Positions 695 through 35,433 of a stretch of DNA of 64,000 nt are shown piece after piece. The stretch covers positions 224,001 through 288,000 of the forward strand of contig CAWBVY010000004.1 of assembly GCA_963792415.1 (NCBI GenBank), read 5' to 3'. The DNA comes from Candidatus Deferrimicrobiaceae bacterium (GTDB lineage Bacteria > Desulfobacterota > Deferrimicrobia > Deferrimicrobiales > Deferrimicrobiaceae). Both the position numbers and the translations under genes were made by a program. The stretch's first letter is position 1. Each line of letters starts with the position of its first letter. The notes beneath the pieces were generated by a model. It ran no database searches and was not told the DNA's origin. It saw only the letters and a program-made list of their open reading frames with translations.

Positions 695-1045
695 TCCGGC
701 GGCCTGCGGACGTTCGTCCGGCCGCGTTCTCCGGGCGCCGACGGAGCCGGCACGGAAATCCCACCGCGGGAGCGGCCTCTGGCGGACCAGCGATGAATCC
801 GGGTCCGTACCGGAAGAGATCCGTTGCCGAGAGTGCACGTTCGGCCCACACCCGGTATCATCCTCCCGCGATTCCGGCCGAAAGGAAAATCCCCTCGTTC
901 CGCAGGTCAAAGAACGGGGACCGGGCGCGTCGTGCAGGCGTCCAGCGCGGTTCCCGGGCCGGGACAACATCAGGACAAATGCAAATAAATTCATAAAAAC
1001 AACAACTTGTAGTTTATTAACGGGGGGTTCCGACGGGGAGTATCG

Positions 1046-1110
1046 TTGACTTGACACGTTATGAAAGAGCATGACAATATGTGACATATTTTGACCTGGA
1101 TTGAGAGAAT
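1046..1110 (+). promoter_or_regulatory. sigma70 promoter overlapped by a phased 10-bp repeat operator (DeoR-type)
   Basis: TTGACA at 1051-1056. TGA(C/A/G) recurs at 1052, 1062, 1072, 1082, 1092 and 1102. Palindrome AATATGT-G-ACATATT at 1076-1090. Confidence 0.7.
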
Positions 1111-1915
1111 CTATTTGGACCTCAATGGCGAAAAGATCGATCTGATCCCGGCTCGGCGCCGCAGCATGATATTGGAACTGATCCGACAGCAAACTTCCGT
1201 CTCGGTGCAGGAGTTGGCGCAAAATGTCGGGATCTCCCTCTCTACTGCCCGGCGGGACCTGGATGCGCTGAGCAGGCTGGGATTCATCGAACGCAGTTAC
1301 GGCGGGGCGATATTACCTCTGGCCCTGGGCACCGCCGCCGAGCTGGACCTCGGAATTTCCGCGCATTTTTCCCACGAGGAAAAGAAGGCGATCGGCCGCG
1401 TGGCGGCCGAACTCCTGCTCGACCGGCAGACCGTTCTTTTCGATTCCGGTTCCACGGTAATGGAAATTGCGCGGCGGGTTGTGGAAAAGGGGCTTCGGCT
1501 GACCGCCGTGACCAATGACGTGAAAATGGCGGGGTTGTTCGCCAGGTCGACGGCGATTCAGGTCGTCGTCCTGGGAGGCACGATGCGGCCCGGCTCTCCC
1601 ACACTGGTTGGCGAACCGGGGCTGGGTTTTCTCAAATCCCTCCACGTCGACGTTTCCTTCATCGGCATTCACGCGGTCAAGGGCGCCAGGCTCTGCGAGA
1701 CGACGATCGATCTCGCCGTGTTGAAGCGCGGTATGCTGGATGCGGCAGAGTACGGAGTCCTAGTGGCGGATGCCGGCAAGTTCGGCGCCACGGCGTTCTG
1801 TGACGTCTGCGACGTAAGCAAGTTGGATGAAATCATCACCGACAGCCGCCTTGAGGCGCCGAGGCGGAAGGAGCTCGAGGATCTGGGGGTCAAGCTTCGG
1901 ATCGCTTCCGGATAA
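1091..1915 (+). CDS. DeoR/GlpR family transcriptional regulator (true start possibly TTG 1115)
   Basis: HTH ...SVQELAQNVGISLSTARRDLDAL...IERSYGGA and sensor-domain motifs EEKKAIG, LFDSGST, ADAGKFG. Confidence 0.95.
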   Translation: MTWIERIYLDLNGEKIDLIPARRRSMILELIRQQTSVSVQELAQNVGISLSTARRDLDALSRLGFIERSYGGAILPLALGTAAELDLGISAHFSHEEKKAIGRVAAELLLDRQTVLFDSGSTVMEIARRVVEKGLRLTAVTNDVKMAGLFARSTAIQVVVLGGTMRPGSPTLVGEPGLGFLKSLHVDVSFIGIHAVKGARLCETTIDLAVLKRGMLDAAEYGVLVADAGKFGATAFCDVCDVSKLDEIITDSRLEAPRRKELEDLGVKLRIASG

Positions 1916-1934
1916 TAAGGAGGAGGAGGAGAAC

Positions 1935-2966
1935 ATGAAAAGCAGGCGAGTAAAAAAACCAGGAGGTGTTCAGATGGGTCGATCCAGAAAAGCCGTGGGA
2001 TTGCTGCTTGCGTCTCTCGTATTGGGAGGGCTGATCGCAACAGGCGCCATCGCGGCGTCCGACTACCCGACCAAGTCGATCGCCGTTCTTCAAGGGTTTA
2101 AGCCTGGCGGGGGAAGCGATGCGCTGGCTACGCTGACGCAGCCCTTCCTGGAGAAGATCCTTGGCAAGAGCTTCGTGAATCAGTACATCCCCGGAGCGAC
2201 GGGCGCCATCGCGTGGACGCAGCTTTCGAAGTCGACGCGGCCCGACGGGTACACCGTCTCGATCACCAACACGCCGATGCTGATGACCAATTACATCATG
2301 AATCCTGAGATTACCTACAATATCAACGAGTTGACCCCTATCGCCAACGTGGTAACCGACCCGGGCATTATCGTCGTCGGCAAGGACAGCCCGTACAAAA
2401 CGATCCAGGAATTTCTGGCGGCCGTAAAGAAGAGTCCCGGCATGATCACCGTGGGAAATTCCGGCATCGGCGGTGACGATTTCTTCACGACGCTGATCTT
2501 CGAAAAGGCGAGCGGGCTCAAGTTCCAGATGGTCCCGTTCCAGGGCGACGGCCCCTCCTGGCAGGCGGCCATGGGGGGAAAGATCGACGCAAGCTTCAAC
2601 AATCTCGGGATCACGTTCCCGCAGATCAAGGCCGGCAACCTGCGCGCCCTGGCGCTCTTCGCCGAGAAACGCGATCCGAACATCCCGGACGTTCCCACGA
2701 TGAAGGAACTCGGCTACGACGTCGTCTCCGGCTCTTCGCGCGGCTACAGCGCCCCGAAGGGGATTCCCGCCGAGGCCCGCGACACGCTGATCAAGGCGTT
2801 CGCCAAGATGGCGGAAGATCCGGCCTTCAAGAAAGCGGCTGCCGATCGGGCGCTGCCCATCGACATGAAACTCGGCGATGCCTACACCGACTACCTGCAG
2901 AAGCAGGAGAAGACCTTCGGCAAGATCTGGGACGAGGTCAAGAGCCAGTACCAGGGCAAGAAGTAA
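1935..2966 (+). CDS. tctC: Tripartite tricarboxylate transporter substrate-binding protein (TctC/Bug family); alternative start 1974
   Basis: YPTKSI, PGGGSD, PGATGAIA, PDGYT, PDVPTMKELG motifs plus signal peptide. Confidence 0.93.
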   Translation: MKSRRVKKPGGVQMGRSRKAVGLLLASLVLGGLIATGAIAASDYPTKSIAVLQGFKPGGGSDALATLTQPFLEKILGKSFVNQYIPGATGAIAWTQLSKSTRPDGYTVSITNTPMLMTNYIMNPEITYNINELTPIANVVTDPGIIVVGKDSPYKTIQEFLAAVKKSPGMITVGNSGIGGDDFFTTLIFEKASGLKFQMVPFQGDGPSWQAAMGGKIDASFNNLGITFPQIKAGNLRALALFAEKRDPNIPDVPTMKELGYDVVSGSSRGYSAPKGIPAEARDTLIKAFAKMAEDPAFKKAAADRALPIDMKLGDAYTDYLQKQEKTFGKIWDEVKSQYQGKK

Positions 2967-2977
2967 GGCGGCATGTC

Positions 2978-3008
2978 CCGGAGCGGGGGCGTTCGGCTCC
3001 CGCTCCGG
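2978..3008 (+). other. Intergenic stem-loop after tctC (mRNA stabiliser or partial terminator)
   Basis: CCGGAGCGGGGG...CTCCCGCTCCGG inverted repeat. Confidence 0.5.
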
Positions 3009-3029
3009 AACCCCCAGGAGAGAATACGA

Positions 3030-3482
3030 ATGAATCGCCTGGCCCCGTATCTTCTGTTCGCCGGAGCCGTTGACTCCCTGGCGGTCGTCTTTTACGTAAA
3101 CACCCTCAGAATGCCGAAGGCGGCGTATCAGATGCCGCGCATCCTGATCGCCCTGGTGCTCCTGCTGTCGGTGCTCATGATCGTCGAGCAGCTCCTCCTG
3201 ATGCGGAAAACCCCCTCCGCGGAAAACGGCAACGACATTCCCGTGGAAATCAGCCCCATCCGGATCGGCGTGTTCGTATCCCTGATCCTCGCGTACGTCC
3301 TGACCATCGTGCCCCTGGGGTATTTCATCGCGACGCCGGTGTTCCTGATCGGATCCCTCCTTTTTCTCAGATCGACGAAGATGCACTGGATATTGGCGAT
3401 CGCGGTCGGTTTTACGGGATTCGTCTACCTGCTGTTCGTGCTTTTTCTGCACATGCCGGTACCCATGGGCCTGCTGGGCTAG
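3030..3482 (+). CDS. tctB: TTT small membrane subunit TctB
   Basis: About 4 TM helices, LGYFIATPVF and LF..FL.MPVP.G tail; lies between tctC and tctA. Confidence 0.88.
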   Translation: MNRLAPYLLFAGAVDSLAVVFYVNTLRMPKAAYQMPRILIALVLLLSVLMIVEQLLLMRKTPSAENGNDIPVEISPIRIGVFVSLILAYVLTIVPLGYFIATPVFLIGSLLFLRSTKMHWILAIAVGFTGFVYLLFVLFLHMPVPMGLLG

Positions 3483-3499
3483 GATATGGAGATTTCCCC

Positions 3500-5023
3500 G
3501 TGATTTTCGACGCCGTCCTCACCGGCTTGACGGGAGTGATGTCGCCGCTCAACCTCCTGCTCATCGCGGGTGGAACGGCGATCGGTATCTTCGTGGGGGC
3601 GATGCCCGGCCTTTCGGCGACGATGGCGATCGCGCTCCTGCTTCCGCTGACCTTCCCGCTTCCCCCGGCATCGGGTTTAAGCATGCTCGCTTCCCTCTAC
3701 ATGGGAGCCATGTACGGCGGGTCGATCGCGGCCATCCTGCTTCGGACCCCGGGAACCCCGGCGGCAGCTGCCACCGTGCTCGACGGATATCCGATGGCCC
3801 GGAACGGGCAGGCGGGAAAAGCGCTGGGCGTGTCCCTGGTCGCGTCGTTCATCGGGGGCCTGATCAGCAGTATCGGGCTGCTGACCGTCGCGCCGGTGCT
3901 TGGCAAGATCGCGCTGGAGTTCGGCCCCGTGGAGCTTTTCGCCGTAGCCGTGCTCGGACTCACGATCATCGCGTCCCTTTCCCGCGGCTCCACGATTCTC
4001 GGACTGATCTCGGGTGTGCTGGGTGCCCTCTTCGCCATGGTCGGGATGGACAACATCACCGGCGTGCCCCGGTTCACCTTCGGGAACATCAACCTGTTCA
4101 GCGGGATTTCCTTCGTCGTGGCGTTGATCGGCCTGTTCTCCATTCCACAGGCGATCCGGCTGATCGAAAGGAAGGAGGACGCGAAGCGGGAGCTGGTGGT
4201 CAACAGAATCACCGATAAGATGCTGCCGACGTGGAAGGAGTTCAAAGGGATGGCCGTGACCATCGTCCGCTCGTCTTTCATCGGGCTTGTCGTCGGCCTG
4301 ATCCCCGGAACCGGCGGCGACACCGCATGCTGGTTCGGCTATAACGAAGCGAAACGCTTCTCGAAACACAAAGAGAAGTTCGGAACCGGCATTCCGGAGG
4401 GGGTTGCTGCCGCGGAAGCCGCGAACAACGCGGTGGTCGGCGGCGCGCTGATCCCGACCATCTCGTTGGGGATCCCGGGCAGCTCCTCCACGGCAGTCCT
4501 CATGGGCGGCCTGATGGTGCACGGGATCATGCCCGGCCCGTCGCTGATGTCCGAATATGCCGACGTGACCTACACGTTGATCTGGGCGGTGGTTCTTTCC
4601 AATTTCGCGATGCTTTTCCTGGGGTTGCTCTTGACGCGCATGAGCATCTCCGTTACCCGGGTCAAGGACAGAATCATGGCCCCCCTGATCATCGTCCTGT
4701 GCGTGATCGGCTCCTTTTCCATCAACAACAATATATTCGACGTAATCCTGATGTTCGCTTTCGGGATTCTCGGGTACGTCATGGACAAGCTGAAGATTCC
4801 CACGGCGCCGATGGTGGTCGGACTGATTCTCGGGGACATGTTCAATGTAACCCTCCACCAATCGCTTTTGATCAGTCACGGCAGTTGGGCCGTTTTCGCA
4901 AAGAACCCCATCTCGGCAACGCTCCTTGCGATAGCGTTCTTATCCCTTCTGCAGTCCACACCGTTGTTTTCCTGGGTTCGCAAATACGGTTTCGCCAAGA
5001 ACGGGAGGTCTTCCATTGAGTGA
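3500..5023 (+). CDS. tctA: TTT large membrane subunit TctA
   Basis: GAMPGLSATMAIALLLP, YMGAMYGGSI.AIL.RTPGTP, DGYPMA, AEAANNA, LGIPGS motifs. Confidence 0.96.
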   Translation: MIFDAVLTGLTGVMSPLNLLLIAGGTAIGIFVGAMPGLSATMAIALLLPLTFPLPPASGLSMLASLYMGAMYGGSIAAILLRTPGTPAAAATVLDGYPMARNGQAGKALGVSLVASFIGGLISSIGLLTVAPVLGKIALEFGPVELFAVAVLGLTIIASLSRGSTILGLISGVLGALFAMVGMDNITGVPRFTFGNINLFSGISFVVALIGLFSIPQAIRLIERKEDAKRELVVNRITDKMLPTWKEFKGMAVTIVRSSFIGLVVGLIPGTGGDTACWFGYNEAKRFSKHKEKFGTGIPEGVAAAEAANNAVVGGALIPTISLGIPGSSSTAVLMGGLMVHGIMPGPSLMSEYADVTYTLIWAVVLSNFAMLFLGLLLTRMSISVTRVKDRIMAPLIIVLCVIGSFSINNNIFDVILMFAFGILGYVMDKLKIPTAPMVVGLILGDMFNVTLHQSLLISHGSWAVFAKNPISATLLAIAFLSLLQSTPLFSWVRKYGFAKNGRSSIE

Positions 5024-6122
5024 AATGAACATTGCAACGGCGATGACGGGGCTGGTTTCCTATCCGAACGGAGATATCAGGCTCACCGAGGTACCGGTCC
5101 CCAGGCTCGGCGAAAACCCGTTCTCCCCGCGGGACGTCCTGTGCGAGGTCGCGTACTGCGGCATCTGTGGAAGCGACATCCACAAGTGGCTTGACGAGAA
5201 AAAAGGGAATATGAAACACGTTCCCAAGGCCGTAGTCGGAGGACACGAAATCGTCTCCGTCGTGCGCGAAGTCGGAAAGAAGGTTACCCGCTTCCGGCCC
5301 GGCGACCGGGTGGTGCACGAGATCGTGACCTTCTACTGCGGTGAATGTCCGGCGTGTCTTGAGGGACGCTTCAACATCTGCAACAAGATTCCGCCGATGG
5401 AGGGGCGCGCGCACTTCATGACGGGCGGCGGTTTCGCCAAATATGTGATGTGGCCGGAGCAGCAACTCCACAAGCTGCCGGACTCCATCGGGAGCAAGGA
5501 AGCCGTGCTGATGGAACCGACGGCGGGAAGCATCCACAGCATCATCACCCGGATGGGCGTCAAGGCCGGGGAATCGGTCGCCATCCTTGGCCCCGGTGCG
5601 CGCGGGCTGCTTCTGCTGCAGGTCTGTCTGGCCATCGGGGCCGGCCCCATCGTCATGACCGGCCTCACGCGGGACGAGTCGTTTCGCCTGGCGATGGCGA
5701 GGAAACTGGGGGCCGACCGGATCGTCAATGTGGAAAAGGAGGATATCCGGGACGTCGTCCGGGAAATGACCAACGGGATCGGCGTGGACGTTGTGTTGGA
5801 AAACACCGGCTCGGTCGCCCCGATCGAGGAATCGCTCGATATCGTCCGCAAGGGCGGGAGGGTCCTGTGGGCCGGCGGCGGGATCCGGGGCGGAATCGTC
5901 GCGCCGGTGGACACGTACAAGATCATCGTCAAGGAGATCGATGTAAAAGGAGAGATCTCGCAGATTCCCTACGACTGGAAAACGGCGATCCATCTGGTTT
6001 CCGCCGGGAAAGTCGATCTGAAATCGCTCGTGACCCACGAGTTCCCGCTCCCGGACTGGAAGAAAGGGTTCGATCTTGCCGCCACGAGTCCGGAGTGCCT
6101 GCGCGTGGCGCTGAAGCCGTGA
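5016..6122 (+). CDS. Zn-dependent medium-chain dehydrogenase (sorbitol/threonine DH-like)
   Basis: CGICGSD, GHE, structural Zn CGECPAC...C, Rossmann GPGARG. SD GGGAGG 7 nt before TTG 5016. Confidence 0.92.
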   Translation: MSEMNIATAMTGLVSYPNGDIRLTEVPVPRLGENPFSPRDVLCEVAYCGICGSDIHKWLDEKKGNMKHVPKAVVGGHEIVSVVREVGKKVTRFRPGDRVVHEIVTFYCGECPACLEGRFNICNKIPPMEGRAHFMTGGGFAKYVMWPEQQLHKLPDSIGSKEAVLMEPTAGSIHSIITRMGVKAGESVAILGPGARGLLLLQVCLAIGAGPIVMTGLTRDESFRLAMARKLGADRIVNVEKEDIRDVVREMTNGIGVDVVLENTGSVAPIEESLDIVRKGGRVLWAGGGIRGGIVAPVDTYKIIVKEIDVKGEISQIPYDWKTAIHLVSAGKVDLKSLVTHEFPLPDWKKGFDLAATSPECLRVALKP

Positions 6123-6142
6123 GCGGAAGGAGCGACGTCCCG

Positions 6143-7411
6143 ATGAACGTCTTCAACGAGCTTCTCGACCACATACCCGTTCCCCGGATGGTCCGCGCCC
6201 GGCAGAGCTACGAGCGTCCGGTCCTGGCAAACCCCGAAGAGGAGTTCCGCACGCGCCTCCGCGGCAGCGGCGTCCTTTCTGCGATCCGGAAGGGGATGAC
6301 GATCGCGATCGCCGTGGGCAGCCGCGGCATCAGCAACCAGCCGCTCGTCGTGCGTGCCCTGGTGGCGGAGCTCAAAGGGGCGGGCGCGCAGCCGTTCCTC
6401 GTTCCGGCCATGGGATCCCACGGCGGCGCCACCGCCGAAGGGCAGAAGGCGATGCTCGAGGGGTTGGGCTTCGGCGAGGAGTGCGTCGGCGCCCCCATCC
6501 GGGCGACGATGGAGACGGTGGAGCTGGGATCCGCGGGGCCGGATCTTCCGGCGCACATCGACCGGATCGCCCACGCGGCGGACGGCATCGTCCTCGTCAA
6601 CCGCATCAAGCCGCACGTCGCATTTCGGGGCCCGTATGAAAGCGGTCTGGCCAAGATGATCACGATCGGGCTCGGGAAACAGAGAGGGGCCGAGATCTGC
6701 CACGACCTGGGGTTCGGAAAGATGGCCGAGCATATCCCCGCCATCGCCCGTACGATGCTCGCCCAGACCAAGATCCTTTTTGCCGTTGGGCTGCTGGAAA
6801 ATGCCTACCATGAAACCGCCCGGATCGAGGTGATTCCGGCGGCGGAGATCCTCGAGCGGGAGCCTGCCCTCCAGGAGGATGCAAAGCGGCTTTCGCCGCG
6901 GCTCGCGTTCGACCGTCTGGATGTGCTGGTGATGGACGAAATCGGGAAGGACATCAGCGGAACCGGTTTCGACACCAACGTGGCGGGCCGGTACCACACG
7001 CCGTACATCAGCGGCGGGCCGCAGATCACACGACTGGTCGTGCTGGACCTGACCGACAAGAGCCATGGGAACGGCAACGGCCTGGGAATCGTCGACTTCA
7101 CCACAAGGCGCGTGCTCGAGAAATTCCGCTTTGACCAAACCTATCCCAACGCGCTTACCTCGACGGTCCCCGCGAGCGTTAAGATCCCGATGGTGCTGGA
7201 AAGCGACCGTCATGCGTTCCAGGCCGCCATCCGGACCACCAACCTCGTCCGCAAGGAAGAGGTGCGTCTGGTGCGCATCAAGAACACGATCGATATGGAC
7301 GAGATCGAGATCTCGGAAAACCTGGTGGAGGAAGCACGCGGAAATCGCTCCCTCCAGGTGATCTCGGATGCGTTCACCCTGCCGTTCGATGCCAAGGGGA
7401 ATCTTCTTTGA
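6143..7411 (+). CDS. LarA (lactate racemase) superfamily / nickel-pincer-type isomerase homologue (DUF2088-like)
   Basis: IAIAVGSRGI, PAMGSHGGATAEGQ, NRIKPH..F.GPYESGLAKM..IGLGKQRGA, IGKDISGTGFDTNV.GR. ATG 6143 with SD AAGGAG. Confidence 0.8.
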   Translation: MNVFNELLDHIPVPRMVRARQSYERPVLANPEEEFRTRLRGSGVLSAIRKGMTIAIAVGSRGISNQPLVVRALVAELKGAGAQPFLVPAMGSHGGATAEGQKAMLEGLGFGEECVGAPIRATMETVELGSAGPDLPAHIDRIAHAADGIVLVNRIKPHVAFRGPYESGLAKMITIGLGKQRGAEICHDLGFGKMAEHIPAIARTMLAQTKILFAVGLLENAYHETARIEVIPAAEILEREPALQEDAKRLSPRLAFDRLDVLVMDEIGKDISGTGFDTNVAGRYHTPYISGGPQITRLVVLDLTDKSHGNGNGLGIVDFTTRRVLEKFRFDQTYPNALTSTVPASVKIPMVLESDRHAFQAAIRTTNLVRKEEVRLVRIKNTIDMDEIEISENLVEEARGNRSLQVISDAFTLPFDAKGNLL

Positions 7412-7494
7412 GCCGGAGAGGCGTCGTCGGAAGGAACTCCGGTGAATGACATTGCCCCATCGCCTTCCCAATTCATTCCAATGAAGGGTTGCGT

Positions 7495-8484
7495 ATGACG
7501 CGTCCCGTTCTGGGCGTGACCATCGGTGATCCGGCGGGCGTAGGGCCCGAGATCTGCATCAAGGCGCTGACCCGGAAGGAAGTCGTCGAGATCTGCCGTC
7601 CCGTGTTCTACGGCGATGAAGGGGTGCTGCGGCGTGCGATGAAGGTCGTGCCCACGCCGGTGGAACTGCACCGGATCGGACAGGCGGCGGAGTTCCGGGA
7701 CGGGGTCATGAATGTGATCTCCCTCGACAATATGCCGGACAACTGGGAGTACGGAAGAGTCCAGGCCGCGTGCGGCAGGGCGGCGTTCGAGTACATCGTC
7801 CGGGCAGTGGAGGACGCCAAGGAGAGGAAGATCGCGGGAGTGGTCACCGGGCCGATCAACAAGGAATCGATGAACTTGGCCGGGATGAACTACGCGGGAA
7901 TGACCGAAGTCTTCGCGGAACTGACCGGGACAAAGGATTACTCGATGATGCTGACGGGTGGACCGCTGAAGGTGATCCATGTCTCGACGCACCTCTCGAT
8001 GCGCGAAGCCGTCGAACGGGTCAGGAAGGAGAGGGTTCTGCGGGTCATTCGCCTCGCTGACGCGAGCCTCCGGGACTTGGGGTACGCGCGTCGCCGGATC
8101 GCCGTGGCGGGACTGAACCCGCATTCCGGCGAGAACGGCCTGTTCGGCACCGAGGAGGCGCAGGAAGTGGTCCCGGCCATCGAGGCGGCGAAGGGGGAAG
8201 GGCTGGACGTTACCGGGCCGGTGCCTCCCGACACGGTCTTCATGAAAGCGGCGACGGGAATGTTCGACATCGTCGTGGCCATGTACCACGATCAGGGGCA
8301 CATTCCGTTGAAGCTCCTCGATTTCATGGGAGGGGTGAACGTTACGGTCGGCATACCGATCCTCCGTACCTCCGTCGACCACGGCACGGCATTCGATATC
8401 GCCGGCAAGGGCACCGCCGACGAGACGAGCATGGTCAAGGCCATCGAGCTGTGTGTCCAGTTCGCCCTCAACCGGAGAAAGTAG
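7495..8484 (+). CDS. pdxA2: PdxA-family dehydrogenase; PdxA2-type (4-phospho-tetronate dehydrogenase) by context
   Basis: GDPAGVGPE, GLNPHSGENGLFG.EE, GPVPPDT, AMYHDQGHIP.K, RTSVDHGTAFDIAGKG. Co-located with a DUF1537 kinase, and a second housekeeping pdxA lies at 62614. Confidence 0.88.
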   Translation: MTRPVLGVTIGDPAGVGPEICIKALTRKEVVEICRPVFYGDEGVLRRAMKVVPTPVELHRIGQAAEFRDGVMNVISLDNMPDNWEYGRVQAACGRAAFEYIVRAVEDAKERKIAGVVTGPINKESMNLAGMNYAGMTEVFAELTGTKDYSMMLTGGPLKVIHVSTHLSMREAVERVRKERVLRVIRLADASLRDLGYARRRIAVAGLNPHSGENGLFGTEEAQEVVPAIEAAKGEGLDVTGPVPPDTVFMKAATGMFDIVVAMYHDQGHIPLKLLDFMGGVNVTVGIPILRTSVDHGTAFDIAGKGTADETSMVKAIELCVQFALNRRK

Positions 8485-8514
8485 CGGCATTCCCATCCGC
8501 GCGGAGAAAACAAA

Positions 8515-10221
8515 ATGACGACACGGAAAACGGATGAAAAAGGGAAATCCCCGCGGATACCTTCCGATGAGAAGATTTCCCGCAGCCGGGACCTGACGGA
8601 AGGGATCGACCGTGCGGCGCATCGGGCGCTGCTTTACTCCCTGGGCCTCTCCCGGGAGGACTTGAAGCGCCCCTTCATCGCGGTGGCCAATTCCTGGAAC
8701 GAGATCGTCCCCGGCTGCGTTCCGCAGAGGCAGGTCGCCGACGCGGTGAAGCAGGGGATCCGGGCCGCCGGGGCGATCCCCTTCGAGTTCAACACGATCG
8801 GCGTCTGTGACGGGATGGCCCAGGGGCACGTCGGGATGAGTTTTTCCCTGCCCAGCCGGGAGGTCATCGCCGACTCGGCGGAGATCATGCTGGAAGCGCA
8901 CCGCTTCGACGGCGCGGTCTTCCTGACCTCGTGCGACAAGATCACCCCCGGCATGCTGATGGCGATGTTCCGGGTCAACATACCGTCGATCATCGTCGCA
9001 CCGGGCACGATGGCGCCCGGGGAGTACAAGGGGGAGAAGCTCACCACCTCCGTGATCCGCGAGTTCGTCGGGCGGTGCCAGACCGGAATCCTCTCGGAAG
9101 AGGAACTTGCGGAGGTCGAGCGCGTCGCGTGTCCGACGCTCGGGAGCTGCGCCATGATGGGCACGGCCAACACCATGGCCTGCCTTTGTGAAGTTCTCGG
9201 GCTGGCGTTCCCCGCATCGGCGACCATGCCGGCGTCCTCCAGCGAGAAGCTGCGCGAAGGGATTATTGTCGGGAAGCGGATCGTAGAGCTGGTGAATCAG
9301 GATGTGAAGCCCCTGGATCTGGTAGACCGGGAAACGTTTATCGACGCCGTCAAGTTCGTCCTGGCGGTGGGCGGTTCCACCAATGCCACCCTGCATATCC
9401 CGACACTGGCCGCGGAGGCGGGGTACGAATTGAATCTCGCCGATATGGAAGCCCTCTGCGATAAGATCCCGTACGTTTCCCGGATCAACCCGTCCGGGAA
9501 ACAGACGATGGCCGATTTTCACCGTGCCGGGGGAGTGAGCGCCGTCTTCGCTTCCCTGGGCGATGCCCATTTCCACCTCGACCGGAGGAGCGTCACAGGA
9601 AAGACGCTGCGGGAGATCGCCGACGCCGCGCCGTGGACCGACAAGGAGATGATCCGTCCCGCGTCGGAGCCGATTTCGCCCATGGGGGCCCTCAAGGTGC
9701 TGCGCGGGAACCTCGCGCCGGGAGGAGCCGTCTGCAAGCGGTCCGGCGCCGTCAAGAACATGTGGCGCCACTCCGGGCCCGCCCGTGTCTTCCACTCGAT
9801 GGAGGAGGCGGTCAAGGTCGTGGAGGACGGGAGGATCGAGCCGGGCTCGGTGATCGTGATCCGCTACGAGGGCCCGGTGGGCGGGCCGGGGATGCGGGAG
9901 ATGCACCTCATCACGTCCATCCTGGCCGGATCGGGTCTGGCGGAAAGCACGGCGCTGGTCACCGACGGCCGCTTTTCGGGATCCACCCGCGGGCCCTGCA
10001 TCGGCCACGTGACGCCCGAGGCGGCCCTCGGCGGACCGATCGCATTCGTGCGGGACGGCGACACGATTTCGATCGATCTGTACGAGGGGAAGCTGGAGTT
10101 GGCGCTGAGCGACGACGAGATCGGACGCCGGCGGGCGGGGTGGCAGCCGGTCGTCCGGCCGCATCGCGGCGTATTGGGCTCCTTCGCCGACAAGCATCGC
10201 CGGGCGGCGATGGAACGGTGA
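8515..10221 (+). CDS. IlvD/Edd family Fe-S dehydratase (probable sugar-acid dehydratase)
   Basis: [60 protein letters not shown]. Confidence 0.93.
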
Positions 10222-10261
10222 CCCGCTGCCTGCGGGACAAGGGAAACCAGGCGAAGACCGG

Positions 10262-11587
10262 ATGAGAAAAGACGCTTTCAAGGTCATCGTCATCGCCGAC
10301 GATCTCACAGGGGCCAACGATACCGGAGTCCAGATCGTGAAACGCGGCCACGAGACGGTTACCGTCGTGGACCCCACCCTGATGGGAGACACGCTGGCGA
10401 ACGGGATCGTGCTGGATACCGAGTCGCGCACGCTGCCGGTGGAGGAGGCCCGGGCTGCGATGCGCGATGCGGCGCGCGCGTTGGGCAGTCGCCCGAACGC
10501 CCTTCTCTACAAGAAGATCGATTCCACGTTGCGAGGGCATATCGGCGCGGAGCTCGGTGCTCTGATACGGGAACTCGAACCGGATCGGGTGGTTTGCGCG
10601 CCGGCATATCCGAAAAACGGACGAACGACGCGAAACGGGATCCACTTCCTGCACGGAGTTCCGATCGACCGCACCGAGGTGGCAGGTGACCCGAGAAACC
10701 CTGTGGACACGGCCAGCTTGCCTGCCATGCTGGCGAAAGATGGCGGGCCACGCTTCCTCCATGTCGATCTGGGCGTGCTTCGGTCCGGGCAGGCCGCCAG
10801 CCTGGCGGCGGAACGCTTCCTCAGTTTCGATTGTGAGGAGCAGGAGGATCTGCGGCGGATCGTTCGGGCCGTGGGAGAAACCGGAAAAAGGGTTCTCTGG
10901 TGCGGGTCCGCGGGATTGGCCGAAGTGCTCCTGGAGGAGGTGCTCCCGCCCGGCAAGGGGAAAGACGAACGCGGCGGTTCCATCGGTCGTAAGCCGTCAA
11001 CAGGGCCGGCAGGCGGAATCGGCAGTGGCGGGCCGGTCCTTTCCGTTATCGGAAGCATGAGCAGCGTCAGCCGGCGTCAGCTCGAGAGGGCGATCGCTTC
11101 CACCTCGGCGCACGCCGTTCGCCTTCATCCGCAGGCGCTTGTGGACTCCCCCTCCCGGGAGCGCGGCCGCATCGTCCGCGAGCTTGAGGATCGGATGACG
11201 CGGACGGACCACCTGATTCTCACCTCCCTCGGGACGGAGGCAGATCCCCGACCGGCCGGATTTTCGGGAGGCCAACATCTTCAGGACGAGATTCCCGGGC
11301 GGATTGCAGGGTGTCTCGCCGATGCGACCGCCGGGTTTGTCCAAAGGAACCGCATCGCCGGAATGTTCCTTGCCGGAGGGGATACCGCCGTCCACGTACT
11401 CCGGGCCGTTGGTGCGCGGGGACTGCGGCTGGGATCCGAGCTCGAGGCCGGGGTACCGGCCTCCAGGCTTATCGGCGGGATCCTCGATGGCCTGCCGGTG
11501 GTGACCAAGGCGGGGGCCTTCGGCGACGAGGAGACCTTGGTGCGGTCGGCCCGTTACCTCGCGATGCAGCCTCGTGAAGGAACATGA
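10262..11587 (+). CDS. Four-carbon acid sugar kinase (DUF1537, DtnK/DenK-like)
   Basis: IADDLTGANDTG, YKKIDSTLRG, PAYP.NGRT, GGDTA, VTKAGAFG. Confidence 0.93.
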   Translation: MRKDAFKVIVIADDLTGANDTGVQIVKRGHETVTVVDPTLMGDTLANGIVLDTESRTLPVEEARAAMRDAARALGSRPNALLYKKIDSTLRGHIGAELGALIRELEPDRVVCAPAYPKNGRTTRNGIHFLHGVPIDRTEVAGDPRNPVDTASLPAMLAKDGGPRFLHVDLGVLRSGQAASLAAERFLSFDCEEQEDLRRIVRAVGETGKRVLWCGSAGLAEVLLEEVLPPGKGKDERGGSIGRKPSTGPAGGIGSGGPVLSVIGSMSSVSRRQLERAIASTSAHAVRLHPQALVDSPSRERGRIVRELEDRMTRTDHLILTSLGTEADPRPAGFSGGQHLQDEIPGRIAGCLADATAGFVQRNRIAGMFLAGGDTAVHVLRAVGARGLRLGSELEAGVPASRLIGGILDGLPVVTKAGAFGDEETLVRSARYLAMQPREGT

Positions 11588-12522
11588 ACCCTCGAATCTT
11601 ACAAACCGGAAGTCTCTCTCCCTACTTCGATGCGGCTCTGCTGGAACGGTTCGAGGTCTATCCGCTATGGAAGCAGGACGATCCGGCCAGCTACCTCGCA
11701 CGGCATGGCCGTGCCATCGAAGGCGTGGCCACCTTGGCTCCGGTGGGCGCCTCGACCGGGCTGATCGAAGCGCTGCCTGCCCTGAAGGTCATTTCCTGCC
11801 GGGGAATCGGGTTCGACAAGATCGACCTCGACGGCGCCCGTCGACGGGGGATCCAGGTGAGCGGCACTCCCGGCGTGCTGACCGACTGCGTCGCGGACCT
11901 TGCGTTCGGCCTGTTGATCGACGTGGCACGGCACATTTCCGCATCGGACCGCTTCCTCCGGGCTGGCTCCTGGATGGCGGGAAAGTACCGGCTGACCACT
12001 CATGTCAGCGGCAAGAGGCTGGGCATCGTGGGGCTGGGGGAAATCGGACGCGCAGTCGCGAAACGGGCTGCCGGCTTCGCCATGGAAGTCCGATACACCG
12101 ACCGGCAACCGATCGAAGAGGTTCCCTTCAGGTATGAACCCACGTTGAACGGACTTTCCCGGTGGGCCGAATTTCTGCTGGTCGCGGTCCCCGGAGGAGC
12201 TGCCACGCGTCACCTGATTTCATCGTCCGTTCTCGACGCGCTCGGTCCCGACGGGTTTCTCGTCAATATCTCGCGGGGCACGGTGGTGGATCAGGACGCC
12301 TTGGTCCGGGCGCTCGCCGCCGGCGCCGTCGCCGGCGCCGCTCTGGACGTTTTTGCCGACGAGCCCAACGTGCCGGAGGAGTTGCTTCGCATGGACAACG
12401 TCGTGCTTACGCCACACATCGGCAGCGGCACGGTCGAGACACGCAAAGCGATGGAGGATCTCGTGCTGGCGAATCTCGAAGCCTTTTTCAAGACCGGCAA
12501 AGTCTTGACGCCGGCGTTCTGA
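11584..12522 (+). CDS. D-isomer 2-hydroxyacid dehydrogenase (glyoxylate/hydroxypyruvate reductase-like)
   Basis: GIVGLGEIG, VNISRGTVVD, AALDVFADEP, LTPHIGS. Confidence 0.94.
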   Translation: MNPRILQTGSLSPYFDAALLERFEVYPLWKQDDPASYLARHGRAIEGVATLAPVGASTGLIEALPALKVISCRGIGFDKIDLDGARRRGIQVSGTPGVLTDCVADLAFGLLIDVARHISASDRFLRAGSWMAGKYRLTTHVSGKRLGIVGLGEIGRAVAKRAAGFAMEVRYTDRQPIEEVPFRYEPTLNGLSRWAEFLLVAVPGGAATRHLISSSVLDALGPDGFLVNISRGTVVDQDALVRALAAGAVAGAALDVFADEPNVPEELLRMDNVVLTPHIGSGTVETRKAMEDLVLANLEAFFKTGKVLTPAF

Positions 12523-12540
12523 GCCACGGGATACGCTGAA

Positions 12541-13278
12541 ATGAATGTTCCTTCAGGAGTTGTCGGGAAACTCCTGCCGACCGGCAGACTGCGCGCAGCG
12601 ATCAACCTCGGCAATCCGGTTCTTGCCAGGCGGGATCCGGAAAGCGCTTCTCCCGTTGGGGTATCGATCGATCTTGCTGATAATTTCGCGAAACGGCTTG
12701 GCGTGGACATCGAGTTCGTCCTGTTCGATTCCGCCGGCAAATCCGTGGAGGCCGTCACCCGGGAAGAAGCGGACATCGGTTTTTTTGCCGTGGATCCATT
12801 GCGCGGACAAGGGATCGCGTTTACCGCTCCCTATCTGCTGATCGAAGGGTGCTACCTGGTCCGGCAAGACTCGAAAATCCAATCCAACGGGGAAGTGGAC
12901 CGCCCGGAGCATCGGGTCGTCGTGGGAAAAGGCAGCGCCTACGATCTTTTCCTTACCCGGGAACTGCACCACGCTCAAATTGTCAGGGCGGCAACCTCTC
13001 CTGCCGTCGTGGATCTCTTTGTCGAACAAACCATGGAGATCGCTGCGGGCGTAAAACAACAGCTTGAAGCCGGTGCCCGAAGATTCCCGGGCTTGAGGCT
13101 GTTGCCAGGGGGATTCATGGTCATTCAGCAGGCCATGGGACTGCCGAAAGGCCGGGGAGCGGAAGCTGCGGCACTGCTCGGCAAATACGTCGAGGAAATG
13201 AAAGTGAGCGGCTTTGTCGCCCAAGCGCTTGCCCGTCATGGGATCCAGGGTGCTTCGGTGGCACCAACGGCCGAATGA
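12541..13278 (+). CDS. Periplasmic-binding-protein fold protein (SBP_bac_3/PBPb-like), no signal peptide
   Basis: PTGRLRAAINLGNPVLA, GVSIDLA, FTAPYLLIEG.YLV, GSAYDLFLTR. Confidence 0.8.
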   Translation: MNVPSGVVGKLLPTGRLRAAINLGNPVLARRDPESASPVGVSIDLADNFAKRLGVDIEFVLFDSAGKSVEAVTREEADIGFFAVDPLRGQGIAFTAPYLLIEGCYLVRQDSKIQSNGEVDRPEHRVVVGKGSAYDLFLTRELHHAQIVRAATSPAVVDLFVEQTMEIAAGVKQQLEAGARRFPGLRLLPGGFMVIQQAMGLPKGRGAEAAALLGKYVEEMKVSGFVAQALARHGIQGASVAPTAE

Positions 13279-13608
13279 AGAGGTCGGGAAAGCAGCCCCC
13301 CCGGGCTCGCCTGTCGGGAATTGCGCGGCCGGACGCCTCCCCGCGTTCGTGAAGCCACACAGCAACACACAGATGCCTTTTAAATTCAACAACATATAGG
13401 CTATCGGCTTTCCGGTGCGCGACCGGTTTGTCTCCCGTTCGAATGGGCGTAAAATATTTGCAGGAGCCGGTTCGGCACCCGCGGCCGAGCCCGCGGAGAA
13501 AGGGGGGGATCCGGCGGTCCGGAGAGAGCGGTTCCGGCGAGCGGCCGTCCGGTTCCGGAGGGGAGGAACATAGGCCGGGTTCAGGAACCCGGGGACAGGG
13601 GGTTCGAC

Positions 13609-23004: not shown

Positions 23005-23799
23005 GTGACAAGCTGGTGGGAACTATTCCTGATCGTATGGGGGGGCGCCGCCGCAGGGATGGCGGTGTTGCACATCGTCCAGCGGATCCGTCGCGACGCC
23101 GGGATCGTCGACGTTGGGTGGGCGGCCGGCGTCGGGCTTTCGGCCCTCTTTTACGCCATCGTCTCCGGCGGGGATCCGGTCCGCCGCGCGGTACTGGCGG
23201 TCCTCGGCGGGGTCTGGGGGTTCCGCCTGGCCGGGTACCTCCTCGTCGACCGGGTGTTGCGCGACCGCGAGGACGGGCGGTACGCCGCGATGCGGGAAGC
23301 GTGGGGGGAGCGCGCGCAGCGCAACCTCTTCCTCTTCTTCCAGGCGCAGGCGTTCTGGGTCGCCCTTTTCTCGCTGCCGTTCCTGGGGGTCGCCGCGAAC
23401 GGGGCCCCCTTCCCGGGGCCGATCGATGTCGCCGGGATCGCCGTCTGGCTCCTCTCGGTGGCGGGCGAGGGGGTGGCCGACGCGCAGCTCTCCAGGCACC
23501 GGCGCGACCCCGGAAACCGGGGGAAGACGTGCCGGTCCGGGCTGTGGCGCTACTCCCGGCACCCGAACTACTTCTTCGAGTGGCTCCACTGGTTCGCCTA
23601 TGTGCTGCTGGCGTGGGGATCGCCGTGGGCGGCCCTCTCGTGGCCGGGCCCCGTGGTGATGCTCCTCTTCCTGTACAAGGTCACCGGGATCCCCTACACC
23701 GAGCGGCAGGCCCTCAGGAGCCGCGGCGACGACTACCGCCGGTACCAGGAGGAGACGAGCGCCTTCTTCCCGTGGTTCCCGAAGGAGAGGGAGCCGTGA
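23005..23799 (+). CDS. DUF1295 / steroid 5-alpha-reductase-like membrane protein
   Basis: DAGIVDVGW, EDGRY, AD.QL, GLWRYSRHPNYFFEW, TGIP.TE. Confidence 0.92.
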   Translation: MTSWWELFLIVWGGAAAGMAVLHIVQRIRRDAGIVDVGWAAGVGLSALFYAIVSGGDPVRRAVLAVLGGVWGFRLAGYLLVDRVLRDREDGRYAAMREAWGERAQRNLFLFFQAQAFWVALFSLPFLGVAANGAPFPGPIDVAGIAVWLLSVAGEGVADAQLSRHRRDPGNRGKTCRSGLWRYSRHPNYFFEWLHWFAYVLLAWGSPWAALSWPGPVVMLLFLYKVTGIPYTERQALRSRGDDYRRYQEETSAFFPWFPKEREP

Positions 23800-24830
23800 G
23801 CCTGGGGGCGACGCTCGCCGAGCGGGGATATCTCCCCGATTCCGTGGTCCGCTACGGCATCCGGCGCCTCGACCGGAAACGGCTTCGGGCCGAGGACCGG
23901 GGGAGCCCGGAGCGGAACCGGGAGGCGGTGCGGGAGTTCGCGGCGCGCCTCGCGGAGAGTCCCCTCGCGCTCCACACGCGGGAGGCGAACGAGCAGCATT
24001 ACGAGCTTCCGCCCGCGTTCTTCGCCCGGGTGCTCGGTCCCCGGATGAAGTACAGCGGCTGCTACTGGCCGGCCGGCGTCTCCACGCTCGGCGCGGCCGA
24101 AGAGGCGATGCTGGACCTCACCTGCCGGCGGGCGGGGATCGCGGACGGGATGGAGGTGCTCGAGCTCGGTTGCGGCTGGGGGTCGCTGACGCTCTGGATC
24201 GCCGAGAGGTACCCGCGGTGCCGTGTCGTCGCCGTCTCGAACTCCTCCCCCCAGCGGCTCCACATCGAGGCGGCCGCGGCGGCCCGGGGAATCCGCAATG
24301 TGGAGGTTCGCACCGCAGACATGAACGACTTCGACCCGGGGCGCCGCTTCGACCGGGTCGTCTCGGTCGAGATGTTCGAGCACATGCGGAACTGGCCGCT
24401 CCTGATGCGCCGCATCGCATCGTGGCTGGACGACGGGGGGAAGCTGTTCGTCCACATCTTCTCGCACGCGCGCCTCCCGTACCTGTACGAGCCCGACGGG
24501 GACGACGACTGGATGGGGCGGTACTTCTTCACCGGGGGGATGATGCCGTCGGACGACCTCCTCCTGCGCTTCCAGGAACACCTCTCCGTGGAGGACCACT
24601 GGGTCGTCGACGGGACCCATTACGAGAAGACGGCCGACGCGTGGCTGGGGAACCTGGACCGCGCGCGGGACGAGCTCCTGCCGGTCCTCGCGTCCGTTTA
24701 CGGGGAGAGGAACGCACCCCTGTGGTTCCGGCGGTGGAGGATCTTCTTCCTGGCGTGCTCGGAATTGTGGGGGTACGACGGCGGCCGGGAGTGGGTCGTC
24801 TCCCACTACCGATTCGGCAGGAGAAGCTGA
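23796..24830 (+). CDS. SAM-dependent methyltransferase, CFA-synthase/coclaurine-NMT-like family
   Basis: ANEQHYELP, MKYSGC, LELGCGWGSL, SVEMFEHMRN, WM.RYFFTGGMMPS. GTGA overlap with the upstream gene. Confidence 0.92.
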   Translation: MSLGATLAERGYLPDSVVRYGIRRLDRKRLRAEDRGSPERNREAVREFAARLAESPLALHTREANEQHYELPPAFFARVLGPRMKYSGCYWPAGVSTLGAAEEAMLDLTCRRAGIADGMEVLELGCGWGSLTLWIAERYPRCRVVAVSNSSPQRLHIEAAAAARGIRNVEVRTADMNDFDPGRRFDRVVSVEMFEHMRNWPLLMRRIASWLDDGGKLFVHIFSHARLPYLYEPDGDDDWMGRYFFTGGMMPSDDLLLRFQEHLSVEDHWVVDGTHYEKTADAWLGNLDRARDELLPVLASVYGERNAPLWFRRWRIFFLACSELWGYDGGREWVVSHYRFGRRS

Positions 24831-25342
24831 CCCGGACCTTCCACCCGCTCGGAGAGCCGCACAAGGAGCGGCACCGACGCCGCCCAGACCACGGCCAGCA
24901 ACACCAGCCCGAAACGGATCCCCCCCGGGAACGACAATGCCCCCAGGCGTGCGCCGGCATAGTAGGCTCCGGGGCCCGCCACCGCGCCGAGAACCGCGGA
25001 GAGCGCGGTCTTTCCCCGCAGGAACCGCATCGACACCGTCACCGCGGCGCCGAAGTTCGGCCACAGGGCGAAAAGCCACAAGGGGGGAAGTGGCGCCGGG
25101 ACCGCGTCCCGCGCCGGGGCGGTGGCGCCGATCGCGGAAAGCGCCGTTTCGACGAGCAGCCCCAGGACGGCCGCGGCGGCCAGGAGGAGCGCCTGCCTCT
25201 TTCGATTTTCCGAGAGGGCAAGATGGAGCGTCACCGCGGCGGCCACCACGGCGGGACCAAGGAAGAACCTTCCGTTCGCGGCCCCGAGGACGCAGGCGAA
25301 CCATCCGGCCTGGAATGCGACGAGGTTCACGAGAAGGCGCAT
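24806..25342 (-). CDS. DUF2878 membrane protein
   Basis: N..AFQ.GWFACVLG, PPLWL.ALW..F, G..AGP.AYYAG.RLGA. Confidence 0.85.
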   Translation of the reverse strand: MRLLVNLVAFQAGWFACVLGAANGRFFLGPAVVAAAVTLHLALSENRKRQALLLAAAAVLGLLVETALSAIGATAPARDAVPAPLPPLWLFALWPNFGAAVTVSMRFLRGKTALSAVLGAVAGPGAYYAGARLGALSFPGGIRFGLVLLAVVWAASVPLLVRLSERVEGPGQLLLPNR

Positions 25343-25366
25343 CGCCGTCGGCCGGGGAAGAACGGG

Positions 25367-26653: not shown

Positions 26654-26697
26654 GCGCACCCTTTCCGGATCCCGGGGAACCTTTTGTCTGGCGTACT

Positions 26698-28688: not shown

Positions 28689-28719
28689 GGCCGGCCTTCC
28701 TGGCGCGCGTCTCCTCCGG

Positions 28720-29700: not shown

Positions 29701-30133
29701 GGCTACGTTTCTCCATAAAGTTCCCGAACGCCGCCCGGATCGCCCCGACCCGGCGGCGGTTGACGCCGAGATCCCAGTACCCCTTCCGCGATGCGGAGCG
29801 GACGTGGATCACCCCGGCGGCCTCGTCGATCCGGAATTCCACGTCGTCCACGAACCCGAGGAGCGATCGGAACTCCGCCCGGACTTCCATCCCGGAAGAG
29901 TCTGTGACGACGGCGCGGGGGAAGGAGCGCACGGCCGCTTCGATCCCCGCCCGGGCCTCCGCTGCCGTCCCGGCGAACGGGATCGGGTCGACCCGGCGGT
30001 CCGGATCGGGGTCATGGCTCGACACGCAATTGGGGGACGACGGGCAGGGCGGAAGATCGGCATCCCCGGCCCCGGCGGCCGAGACGAGGAGGGACATGCC
30101 CGGAACGAGAAGGAAGATCAGCAGGGTCCGCAT
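29678..30133 (-). CDS. DUF1499 family protein
   Basis: CPSSPNCVSS, GFVDDVEF, IHVRSASRKGYWDLGVNRRR. Confidence 0.9.
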   Translation of the reverse strand: MRTLLIFLLVPGMSLLVSAAGAGDADLPPCPSSPNCVSSHDPDPDRRVDPIPFAGTAAEARAGIEAAVRSFPRAVVTDSSGMEVRAEFRSLLGFVDDVEFRIDEAAGVIHVRSASRKGYWDLGVNRRRVGAIRAAFGNFMEKRSRGGPENR

Positions 30134-35272: not shown

Positions 35273-35330
35273 GGCGCCCATCATTATGCACCATCCGCGC
35301 CCGGGGACCCGTTCCGCCGGCAAATAATTT

Positions 35331-35362
35331 TTGACAACCGTTATATAGATAATAATATAGCG
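35331..35362 (+). promoter_or_regulatory. sigma70 promoter overlapped by a ModE operator
   Basis: TTGACA at 35331-35336 and TAATAT at 35353-35358. Palindrome CGTTATAT-N8-ATATAGCG (35339-35362) matches the ModE box, and modE lies in the downstream operon. Confidence 0.85.
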
Positions 35363-35433
35363 CTGTCCGCAAGGAGGTTCCGCCGTTGGTCACGGCGGCC
35401 TAGATCGCCTGCAAGGGAAAGGGGAGCGGGAAA

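Follow-up and report, generated by a model that had tools for sequence, protein, structure and literature searches.

A 64,000-nucleotide stretch of the genome of Candidatus Deferrimicrobiaceae bacterium (assembly GCA_963792415.1, contig CAWBVY010000004.1, positions 224,001 to 288,000, hereafter the window) contains a compact gene cluster, apparently an operon that was gained by horizontal transfer and serves the catabolism of small sugar acids. The most likely substrates are tetronates (the threonate and erythronate isomers), a reading to which we give an even chance. The cluster encodes a homologue of LarA that belongs to group 22 of the nickel pincer cofactor (NPN)-dependent isomerases, together with a kinase of the DUF1537 family and a PdxA2-type dehydrogenase. 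The gene neighbourhoods compared here firmly indicate that group-22 LarA enzymes work in sugar-acid catabolism and that a subset of them does so with DUF1537 kinases. Three independent and differently built architectures join the two, namely the type found in the window, a three-gene unit on a Rubrobacter plasmid and a cluster of desulfobacterial metagenome-assembled genomes (MAGs; L023-L025).

Eleven open reading frames (ORFs) on the + strand fill positions 1091-13278, with intergenic spacing of -8 to +77 nt according to the ORF list of the window. Families were assigned by Pfam and NCBIfam profile searches, and the ORFs and both sets of profiles bear out the same-strand run that an earlier note on this DNA had described, from deoR through tctCBA, Zn-dehydrogenase, LarA-like gene, pdxA, IlvD/Edd and DUF1537 to the 2-hydroxyacid dehydrogenase. 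The features are:

700..13380, no strand: accessory island from the gyrB 3' end to the hsp20 gene, delimited by breakpoints of DNA homology with congeners
1051..1078, + strand: promoter-like site upstream of deoR, TTGACA-16-GACAAT, 10 of 12 consensus positions
1091..1915, + strand: DeoR-family regulator (HTH_DeoR and DeoRC, Pfam)
1935..2966 (longer ORF from 1827), + strand: TctC periplasmic binding protein of a tripartite tricarboxylate-type transporter (PF03401, 162 bits)
2973..3482, + strand: TctB small membrane subunit (PF07331, 55 bits)
3500..5023, + strand: TctA large membrane subunit (PF01970, 525 bits)
5016..6122, + strand: Zn-dependent medium-chain dehydrogenase of the polyol / threonine-dehydrogenase type (ADH_N and ADH_zinc_N)
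6143..7411 (longer ORF from 5450), + strand: LarA homologue, NPN isomerase group 22 (P0001; NF052515, 522 bits)
7489..8484, + strand: PdxA2-type beta-decarboxylating dehydrogenase (PF04166, 371 bits)
8515..10221, + strand: IlvD/Edd-family Fe-S dehydratase, second copy (ILVD_EDD_N and ILV_EDD_C; TIGR00110, 661 bits)
10262..11587, + strand: DUF1537 four-carbon acid-sugar kinase family protein (SBD_N and NBD_C)
11584..12522, + strand: D-isomer 2-hydroxyacid dehydrogenase of the glyoxylate/hydroxypyruvate/2-ketoaldonate reductase type (2-Hacid_dh and 2-Hacid_dh_C)
12541..13278, + strand: weak SBP_bac_3-like ORF, outside the conserved set (SBP_bac_3, 43 bits)

The kinase has both domains of its family (SBD_N 193 bits, NBD_C 105 bits in Pfam) and matches solved DUF1537 proteins in a structure-sequence search. 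Its top NCBIfam model is the D-threonate kinase NF047819 (275 bits), ahead of 3-oxo-tetronate kinase (120 bits). With the cluster kinase as query a single DUF1537 copy was found in the genome, and among 400 genomes sampled from the phylum no homologue exceeded 41% identity. The PdxA copy of the cluster scores higher with two solved structures of D-threonate 4-phosphate dehydrogenase / PdxA2, 6e85 (314 bits) and 2hi1 (313 bits), than with the PdxA of E. coli (190 bits), and it reaches 354 bits on NF002891 versus 283 bits for the other PdxA of the window. The separate copies of pdxA and ilvD that the earlier note had reported are indeed present, the former at 62614-63597, downstream of two SurA-like peptidyl-prolyl isomerase (PPIase) genes, and the latter at 47848-49518, with 828 bits on TIGR00110. 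Each is 46% identical to its counterpart in the cluster, and their scores and gene context suggest that they are the housekeeping copies.

A much simpler association of the same families was found in a cultured strain. In Rubrobacter indicoceani plasmid NZ_CP031116.1 (L125, 6667-10260) the genes of a DUF1537 kinase, a PdxA and a group-22 LarA overlap or abut, with no Zn-dehydrogenase or IlvD in the unit. The best models were D-threonate kinase for the kinase (235 bits) and D-threonate 4-phosphate dehydrogenase for the PdxA (361 bits, 51% identical to the one in the window), while the LarA reached 522 bits on NF052515 and is 46% identical to the window homologue. Our best guess is tetronates, given that the kinase and PdxA of the window come closest to D-threonate enzymes and that the Rubrobacter unit does without any further enzyme. 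Next to the unit are divergent lutABC-like genes for lactate utilisation, and the plasmid carries another group-22 copy at a different place.

We infer substrates and reactions from gene content, protein families, catalytic residues, lar genes, cluster conservation and the recurrence of LarA with a kinase. The substrate would be taken up through TctCBA, the DUF1537 kinase would phosphorylate its terminal hydroxyl and the PdxA2-type enzyme would oxidise C3 and decarboxylate the product, giving dihydroxyacetone phosphate and CO2. The group-22 LarA would be an NPN-dependent C2 epimerase acting, for example, between D-erythronate and D-threonate, which would let one kinase/dehydrogenase pair use more than one stereoisomer. 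The Zn-dehydrogenase, apparently an older fixed partner of the LarA clade, probably has the task of oxidising one of the secondary hydroxyls in these acids, and the IlvD-type dehydratase and the 2-hydroxyacid dehydrogenase probably constitute a non-phosphorylative side branch or handle the isomers that the kinase cannot take. The widening of the kinase/PdxA2 range by C2 epimerisation had already been put forward in the earlier note; it is the most economical mechanism and gains independent support from the tight Rubrobacter unit, while many other group-22 contexts suggest C5/C6 acids as the substrate.

The LarA homologue passes NF052515, described as 'nickel pincer cofactor-dependent isomerase, group 22', with 522 bits (cut-off 400) and, weakly, the Pfam Lar_N profile (27.4 bits, cut-off 23.3). 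A phmmer comparison with PDB sequences matched no LarA structure, indicating that it is a very distant member of the superfamily. The sole PDB match of the group-22 family profile was Mar2 and it was insignificant (E 1.1), and in the ESM Atlas a group-22 homologue returned its own DUF362/Lar_N family only. When the profile was compared by hhalign with ten canonical LarA proteins drawn from the genomes of this analysis, the two aligned at 95% probability (E 2.6e-8). S60, R61, H93, H158, K171 and H187 are among the invariant residues in an alignment of 24 homologues, and all of them except S60 align with the invariant R75, H109, H173, K183 and H199 of the ten canonical LarAs. We take these positions to be the cofactor-phosphate Arg, the two catalytic His (H108, H174), the cofactor-tethering Lys (K184) and the nickel-binding His (H200) of lactate racemase. 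The source genome encodes LarB (289 bits), LarC (413 bits) and LarE (312 bits), each over its cut-off, and also two canonical LarA genes, which are another possible reason for their presence. LarC was detected in three of the five other genomes carrying group 22, some of which are MAGs; both genomes without LarC hold canonical LarAs and may be incomplete. On these grounds, and given the lar genes that adjoin group 22 in cultured strains, we regard the homologue as a genuine NPN enzyme that probably has the complete racemase/epimerase machinery. Group 22 is large, a search with a limit of E 1e-10 having matched at least 7986 clusters (90% identity), and it extends over bacteria and haloarchaea; no substrate is assigned to it in the main texts on the LarA superfamily (PMC7583248, PMC11770544).

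The operon is an accessory block in a variable slot between gyrB and hsp20. In five congeners without the cluster, DNA homology with the window stops near 690-696 and restarts at 13379-13449, and the distance between the gyrB and hsp20 anchors ranges from ~8 to 78 kb, with different DNA in each. The GC content of the island is 0.60-0.66 versus ~0.67-0.72 over most of the remaining window, and of 27 other genomes in the genus three were found to carry a group-22 gene. In a close relative (L004, 6426-11336) gyrB and hsp20 are adjacent, and a 92% identical LarA gene is located further downstream, where 124 nt of the junction between TctA and Zn-dehydrogenase survive next to it; the body of the dehydrogenase and the rest of the operon are missing, a state that reflects decay, rearrangement or a MAG assembly artefact.

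To place the locus in a wider context we compared 58 loci with LarA relatives, of which species genomes supplied 31 and metagenome contigs, often short ones, the other 27. The gene set of the window (type A) is conserved together elsewhere: PdxA2 matches 76-93% identical adjoin LarA in 9 of the 58 loci, and a Spirochaetota MAG (L006) keeps the order TctCBA-ZnDH-LarA-PdxA-IlvD-kinase at 56-87% protein identity, with a GntR regulator and no 2-hydroxyacid dehydrogenase. The Zn-dehydrogenase is immediately upstream of the LarA homologue in 15 of the 58 loci (73-98% identity). Six of the loci, from Bacillota and Spirochaetota, consist of a bare pair of Zn-dehydrogenase (73-82% identical) and LarA (type B). 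Four other loci (type C; L008, L009, L063, L065) have the tripartite tricarboxylate transporter (TTT), with a TctC 76-79% identical to that of the window, a YcgM-like FAH, an IlvD/Edd dehydratase (~40% identical), LarA (69-72%), a second FAH, a DHDPS-family protein, a 2-hydroxyacid dehydrogenase and a UxaA-family dehydratase split into parts of ~100 and ~390 aa, and they contain no kinase or PdxA. Their YcgM-like FAH is over the NCBIfam cut-off (230 vs 201 bits) and a galactarate-dehydratase-like protein is also present. The split dehydratase recalls SuyAB, the sulfolactate sulfo-lyase, and its combination with TTT led us to consider sulfolactate as the type C substrate, a candidate that was set aside since IlvD/Edd, FAH and DHDPS suit sugar acids better. 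Type D, found in the desulfobacterial MAGs, comprises a short-chain dehydrogenase (SDR), GntR, an OtnC-like class II aldolase, an OiaK/OtnK-like DUF1537 kinase, TRAP DctPQM, Zn-dehydrogenase, a second SDR and LarA (44% identical to that of the window, 507 bits on NF052515), the cluster spanning ~1300-11300 in L024, where the Zn-dehydrogenase appears as two overlapping ORFs, possibly by frameshift or assembly error. Judged by its genes, type D appears to put a LarA front end on a kinase/decarboxylase pathway of another kind. Other group-22 contexts included uxaC-LarA pairs, a tandem LarA duplicate and a glucuronyl esterase neighbour. Behind TctCBA in a Treponema MAG (L018, 6177-10164), uxaC lies between two paralogues of group 22 that share 47% and 55% identity with the protein of the window. 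A group-22 homologue of Megasphaera (L027, 4328-12307; 42% identical, 479 bits) is surrounded by genes for CoA-transferase, 2-hydroxyacyl-CoA dehydratase, acyl-CoA dehydrogenase and D-2-hydroxyacid dehydrogenase, a context indicating that not every member of the group acts on sugar acids.

In a maximum-likelihood tree of 48 LarA sequences type C falls next to the clade of type A and L007, and the Bacillota type B sequences form a separate clade, so the dehydrogenase-LarA pair looks older than the full set of the window. Since that pair also stands alone in six loci, the cluster is a mosaic and not one indivisible invention. An unlikely extension of this view is that the Zn-dehydrogenase-LarA and PdxA2-dehydratase-kinase modules are unrelated, sharing only a promoter and perhaps the transporter, and form no single pathway at all. 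The solitary pairs would be expected in that case, and so would the exchange of regulators (DeoR in the window, GntR in L006) and the LarA of L004, retained by a remnant of the transporter/dehydrogenase junction without the rest. Yet the order TctCBA-ZnDH-LarA-PdxA-IlvD-kinase is held across phyla in L006, and group 22 meets DUF1537 kinases in two more, differently built clusters. For the solitary pairs we also considered the production of dihydroxyacetone for a Dak kinase, and discarded it because Dak1 was found in only two of five carrier genomes and not in one assembled as a single contig of 2.6 Mb.

Cultured carriers broaden the range of contexts. Searching plasmid records at the protein level yielded 117 of them, none of which reached 60% identity, and neighbourhoods were examined in six loci with a gene table, a seventh record (Niallia) without a usable table being left out. 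The group-22 proteins of the cultured strains all pass NF052515 (479-555 bits), and lar biosynthesis genes adjoin the group-22 gene in three of the six loci: Loktanella salsilacus, where a plasmid (L120, 8995-14544) has the group-22 LarA followed by larB-larC-larE; Paenibacillus cellulositrophicus (L122, 7578-14122), with uxaC, group-22 LarA, larE-larB-larC and then an SDR; and Sulfitobacter, where the adjoining gene is that of LarC. The Loktanella plasmid encodes, between LarA and larB, an unannotated 461-aa protein with no NCBIfam match. Altronate-dehydratase-family and L-arabinonate-dehydratase genes are among the group-22 neighbours in Loktanella and Sulfitobacter. In Haloferax volcanii pHV3 (L123, 374393-375769 of the record) the group-22 gene is located between a Gfo/Idh/MocA oxidoreductase and a GH28 gene, a locus that may represent an undescribed pectin or uronate route; the homologue is annotated there merely as a DUF362 protein and has IclR regulators and an ABC transporter nearby. 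Plasmid pSPTER of Sporomusa termitida (L124) carries a type C-like set with an enolase-superfamily dehydratase. Overall, the neighbours of group 22 include UxaC, UxaA/GarD-type and IlvD/Edd dehydratases, FAH, the DHDPS family, the enolase-superfamily dehydratase and GH28.

Such neighbours suggest another reading, which we regard as possible though rather unlikely, in which the true substrate is a C5 or C6 sugar acid (pentonate, hexonate or uronate-derived) and LarA an aldonate 2-epimerase like GntE. The Zn-dehydrogenase would then oxidise the penultimate carbon, the IlvD-type enzyme would dehydrate the aldonate and the kinase and PdxA2 would act on the longer substrate or on a C4 breakdown product. 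Besides the genes beside uxaC in Paenibacillus and in Treponema-type loci, the GH28 and Gfo/Idh/MocA neighbours in Haloferax volcanii and the dehydratases of Loktanella and Sulfitobacter, this reading draws on type C, whose IlvD/Edd, split UxaA-type, FAH and DHDPS are the families of pentonate routes as given in the available text of PMC6336799, and on related kinase/decarboxylase pairs that, in the available part of PMC12994016, take C5/C6 acids. Set against it, the kinase and PdxA are nearest to C4-specific D-threonate enzymes, the window contains no gene for a tetrulose or pentulose phosphate product and no aldolase or kinase of the 2-keto-3-deoxygluconate (KDG) type, and the Rubrobacter unit consists of kinase, PdxA and LarA only.

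A dicarboxylic sugar acid (tartrate, pentarate or hexarate), with LarA as tartrate/aldarate epimerase and the IlvD-type enzyme as dehydratase, is in our view very improbable. TctC-family transporters classically take di- and tricarboxylates, and the YcgM-like FAH and galactarate-dehydratase-like protein of type C would fit such a substrate, as would the characterised LarA homologues that epimerise tartrate and arabinarate in the available text of PMC11770544. However, a DUF1537 kinase requires a free terminal hydroxyl, which aldarates do not have, PdxA2-type enzymes use phosphorylated substrates, and Pfam found in the window cluster no decarboxylase or semialdehyde dehydrogenase typical of aldarate routes.

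The tetronate reading itself has several points against it. Both the kinase (275 vs 450 bits on the D-threonate kinase model NF047819) and the PdxA (354 vs 583 bits on NF002891) are under the curated equivalog cut-offs, so their substrates may differ from D-threonate. At the N-terminal cofactor-phosphate motif S-D-x-T-R of LarA, R61 of the homologue matches R75, but the position of Asp72 is occupied by the invariant Ser60 in group 22, and the hhalign alignment ends at residue 264, leaving unaligned the C-terminal half, in which LarA has Q295 and K298. The type C loci share a 76-79% identical TctC, are devoid of kinase and PdxA and match in their families the non-phosphorylative pentonate routes, which favours a C5/C6 substrate. 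The Zn-dehydrogenase-LarA pair alone in six loci implies that the reaction of the pair needs neither kinase nor PdxA. Finally, the known kinase/PdxA2 route works without the extra enzymes, and the Zn-dehydrogenase looks redundant with PdxA2 in a tetronate scheme.

The top NCBIfam models of the Zn-dehydrogenase, L-threonine 3-dehydrogenase (204 bits) and scyllo-inosose 3-dehydrogenase (186 bits), are both under their cut-offs, and its nearest structures are 5vm2, sorbitol dehydrogenase and threonine dehydrogenases. One way to give it a place within the tetronate reading, unlikely as a whole, is a stereo-inverting front end, in which the group-22 LarA would invert C2 by nickel-pincer hydride shuttling and the Zn-dehydrogenase C3 by oxidation, so that a single kinase/PdxA2 exit would take several or all tetronates, including the L-threonate from ascorbate breakdown. 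The dehydratase passes the TIGR00110 IlvD equivalog (661 bits, cut-off 618), has Pfam domains of 394 and 230 bits and is nearest in structure searches to true dihydroxy-acid dehydratases (438 bits), followed by L-arabinonate dehydratase (309 bits). C140, C206, C212 and S488 are invariant in an alignment of four sequences, and we assume the Cys to be cluster ligands and the Ser to be catalytic. Position 98 is Cys in the copies of the cluster, L006 and L008 and Asp in the other IlvD of the window. The 2-hydroxyacid dehydrogenase, whose gene overlaps the kinase stop codon by 4 nt, has hydroxyphenylpyruvate and glyoxylate/hydroxypyruvate reductases as nearest structures and resembles 2-ketoaldonate reductases too. 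According to the available text of PMC10079672 a dihydroxy-acid dehydratase (DHAD)-type enzyme is able to dehydrate L-threonate, so the side branch that the earlier note proposed, from tetronate by way of the dehydratase, with the 2-hydroxyacid dehydrogenase and without phosphorylation, is chemically possible. Non-phosphorylative sugar-acid routes require a 2-keto-3-deoxy-acid dehydratase, an aldolase, or a 4-dehydrogenase plus hydrolase, and at 1-16 kb the window has no FAH, DHDPS, HpcH or aldehyde dehydrogenase gene.

A promoter scan by consensus only gave five sites, the TTGACA-16-GACAAT site among them, versus 2.0 expected by chance, and a terminator scan gave nothing above chance. The start codon of deoR is ambiguous (TTG at 1091 or 1115), and the top NCBIfam models of its product are GlpR, AgaR and YgbI-type, every score being under its cut-off. 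The ATG of tctC at 1935 is preceded by GGAGGAGGAGGAG. The TTT set is complete, with tctC, tctB and tctA side by side by Pfam. TctC is also 61% identical to that of Loktanella, and the nearest solved Bug/TctC proteins reach at most 138 bits, none with an informative ligand. At the other end of the cluster, the ORF that the earlier note had included as an SBP does exist and has its weak SBP_bac_3 match, but it is not kept in related loci: no counterpart was found in any of the 58, and it is missing in all three close relatives (L003, L005, L060) whose contigs extend well beyond the 2-hydroxyacid dehydrogenase gene.

Elsewhere in the window, a lipid-modification-type cluster at 23005-30133 contains DUF1295, DUF2878, DUF1365, an amine-oxidase-like flavoprotein, a fatty-acid desaturase and DUF1499. 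A molybdenum cofactor/molybdate block at 34295-40817 encodes MoaA, a periplasmic binding protein, a ModE-like TOBE regulator, an ABC ATPase, MoeA, MOSC and MoaC. A fluoride riboswitch at 45259-45326 (60.6 bits) is located directly upstream of crcB (45330-45761) and a DUF190 gene, an ordinary arrangement.

Full-text literature searches found no characterised pathway matching the locus, in agreement with the earlier note, and no work joining a LarA homologue to DUF1537 or PdxA2, although an earlier mention is possible in the supplements and in the 2016 DUF1537 paper, which were outside their scope. The available text of the 2026 papers on C4-C6 sugar-acid clusters makes no mention of a LarA homologue either (0 occurrences in PMC13753588). 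The kinase/PdxA2 exit and LarA-type epimerisation are the known part of the system; what is new is that the two are combined, with the Zn-dehydrogenase as a fixed partner and a dehydratase in addition. The window locus and the Rubrobacter unit give group 22 a concrete substrate class to consider, C4 sugar acids, and point to Rubrobacter indicoceani, Loktanella salsilacus, Paenibacillus cellulositrophicus and Haloferax volcanii as cultured carriers. If the tetronate reading is true, nickel-pincer enzymology extends in sugar-acid catabolism beyond gluconate, and the locus shows how the DUF1537/PdxA2 pathway gains stereochemical breadth. Were the stereo-inverting front end true as well, it would represent an as yet undescribed stereoconvergent pathway for sugar acids and would provide the first physiological role for a LarA group that is among the largest of those to which the main texts assign no substrate.

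In soils and guts the DUF1537/PdxA2 pathway deals with products of ascorbate and sugar oxidation. Its version for D-threonate and D-erythronate, with DtnK or DenK from the DUF1537 kinase family and PdxA2, was reportedly described by Zhang et al. in PNAS in 2016. Like that system, the operon of the window joins a DUF1537 kinase and a PdxA2-type enzyme, both nearest to the D-threonate ones, with a DeoR regulator and an acid transporter. In contrast to it, the kinase and PdxA of the window are under the equivalog cut-offs, their genes are split by the dehydratase gene, and the group-22 LarA, Zn-dehydrogenase, IlvD-type dehydratase, 2-hydroxyacid dehydrogenase and TTT transporter are added. The OtnK/OtnC and Ltn3D routes (Watanabe 2026, PMC12994016; ApnO, PMC13753588), as far as the available texts describe them, are similar in that C2/C3 stereochemistry selects the entry enzyme and that a kinase and a decarboxylation lead to a ketose phosphate, but they differ in using an SDR, a beta-hydroxyacid dehydrogenase or ApnO for entry and a class II aldolase-type decarboxylase. 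With the non-phosphorylative pentonate routes (Watanabe 2019, PMC6336799, available text) the locus shares an IlvD/Edd enzyme, which acts there on aldonates, and type C has in addition the UxaA-type, FAH and DHDPS partners, whereas the window is without all their downstream enzymes and has a dehydratase closer to true dihydroxy-acid dehydratases. In the available texts of Urdiain-Arraiza 2024 (PMC11770544) and Desguin 2020 (PMC7583248), the LarA homologues that have been characterised act on 2-hydroxy acids by inverting C2, with 4-deoxy-threonate/erythronate and gluconate/mannonate among the pairs. The window homologue agrees with this superfamily in keeping the Arg/His/His/Lys/His set and in having lar cofactor genes in the genome, found beside group 22 in three cultured strains, but it is very divergent from canonical LarA and has Ser at the Asp72 position. 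A parallel in function would be GntE, the D-gluconate/D-mannonate 2-epimerase, also a LarA-family enzyme in a sugar-acid cluster that makes one epimer usable downstream; unlike the window homologue, GntE belongs to LarA groups 19/20 and its partners are a hexonate dehydratase and a kinase, not DUF1537/PdxA2.

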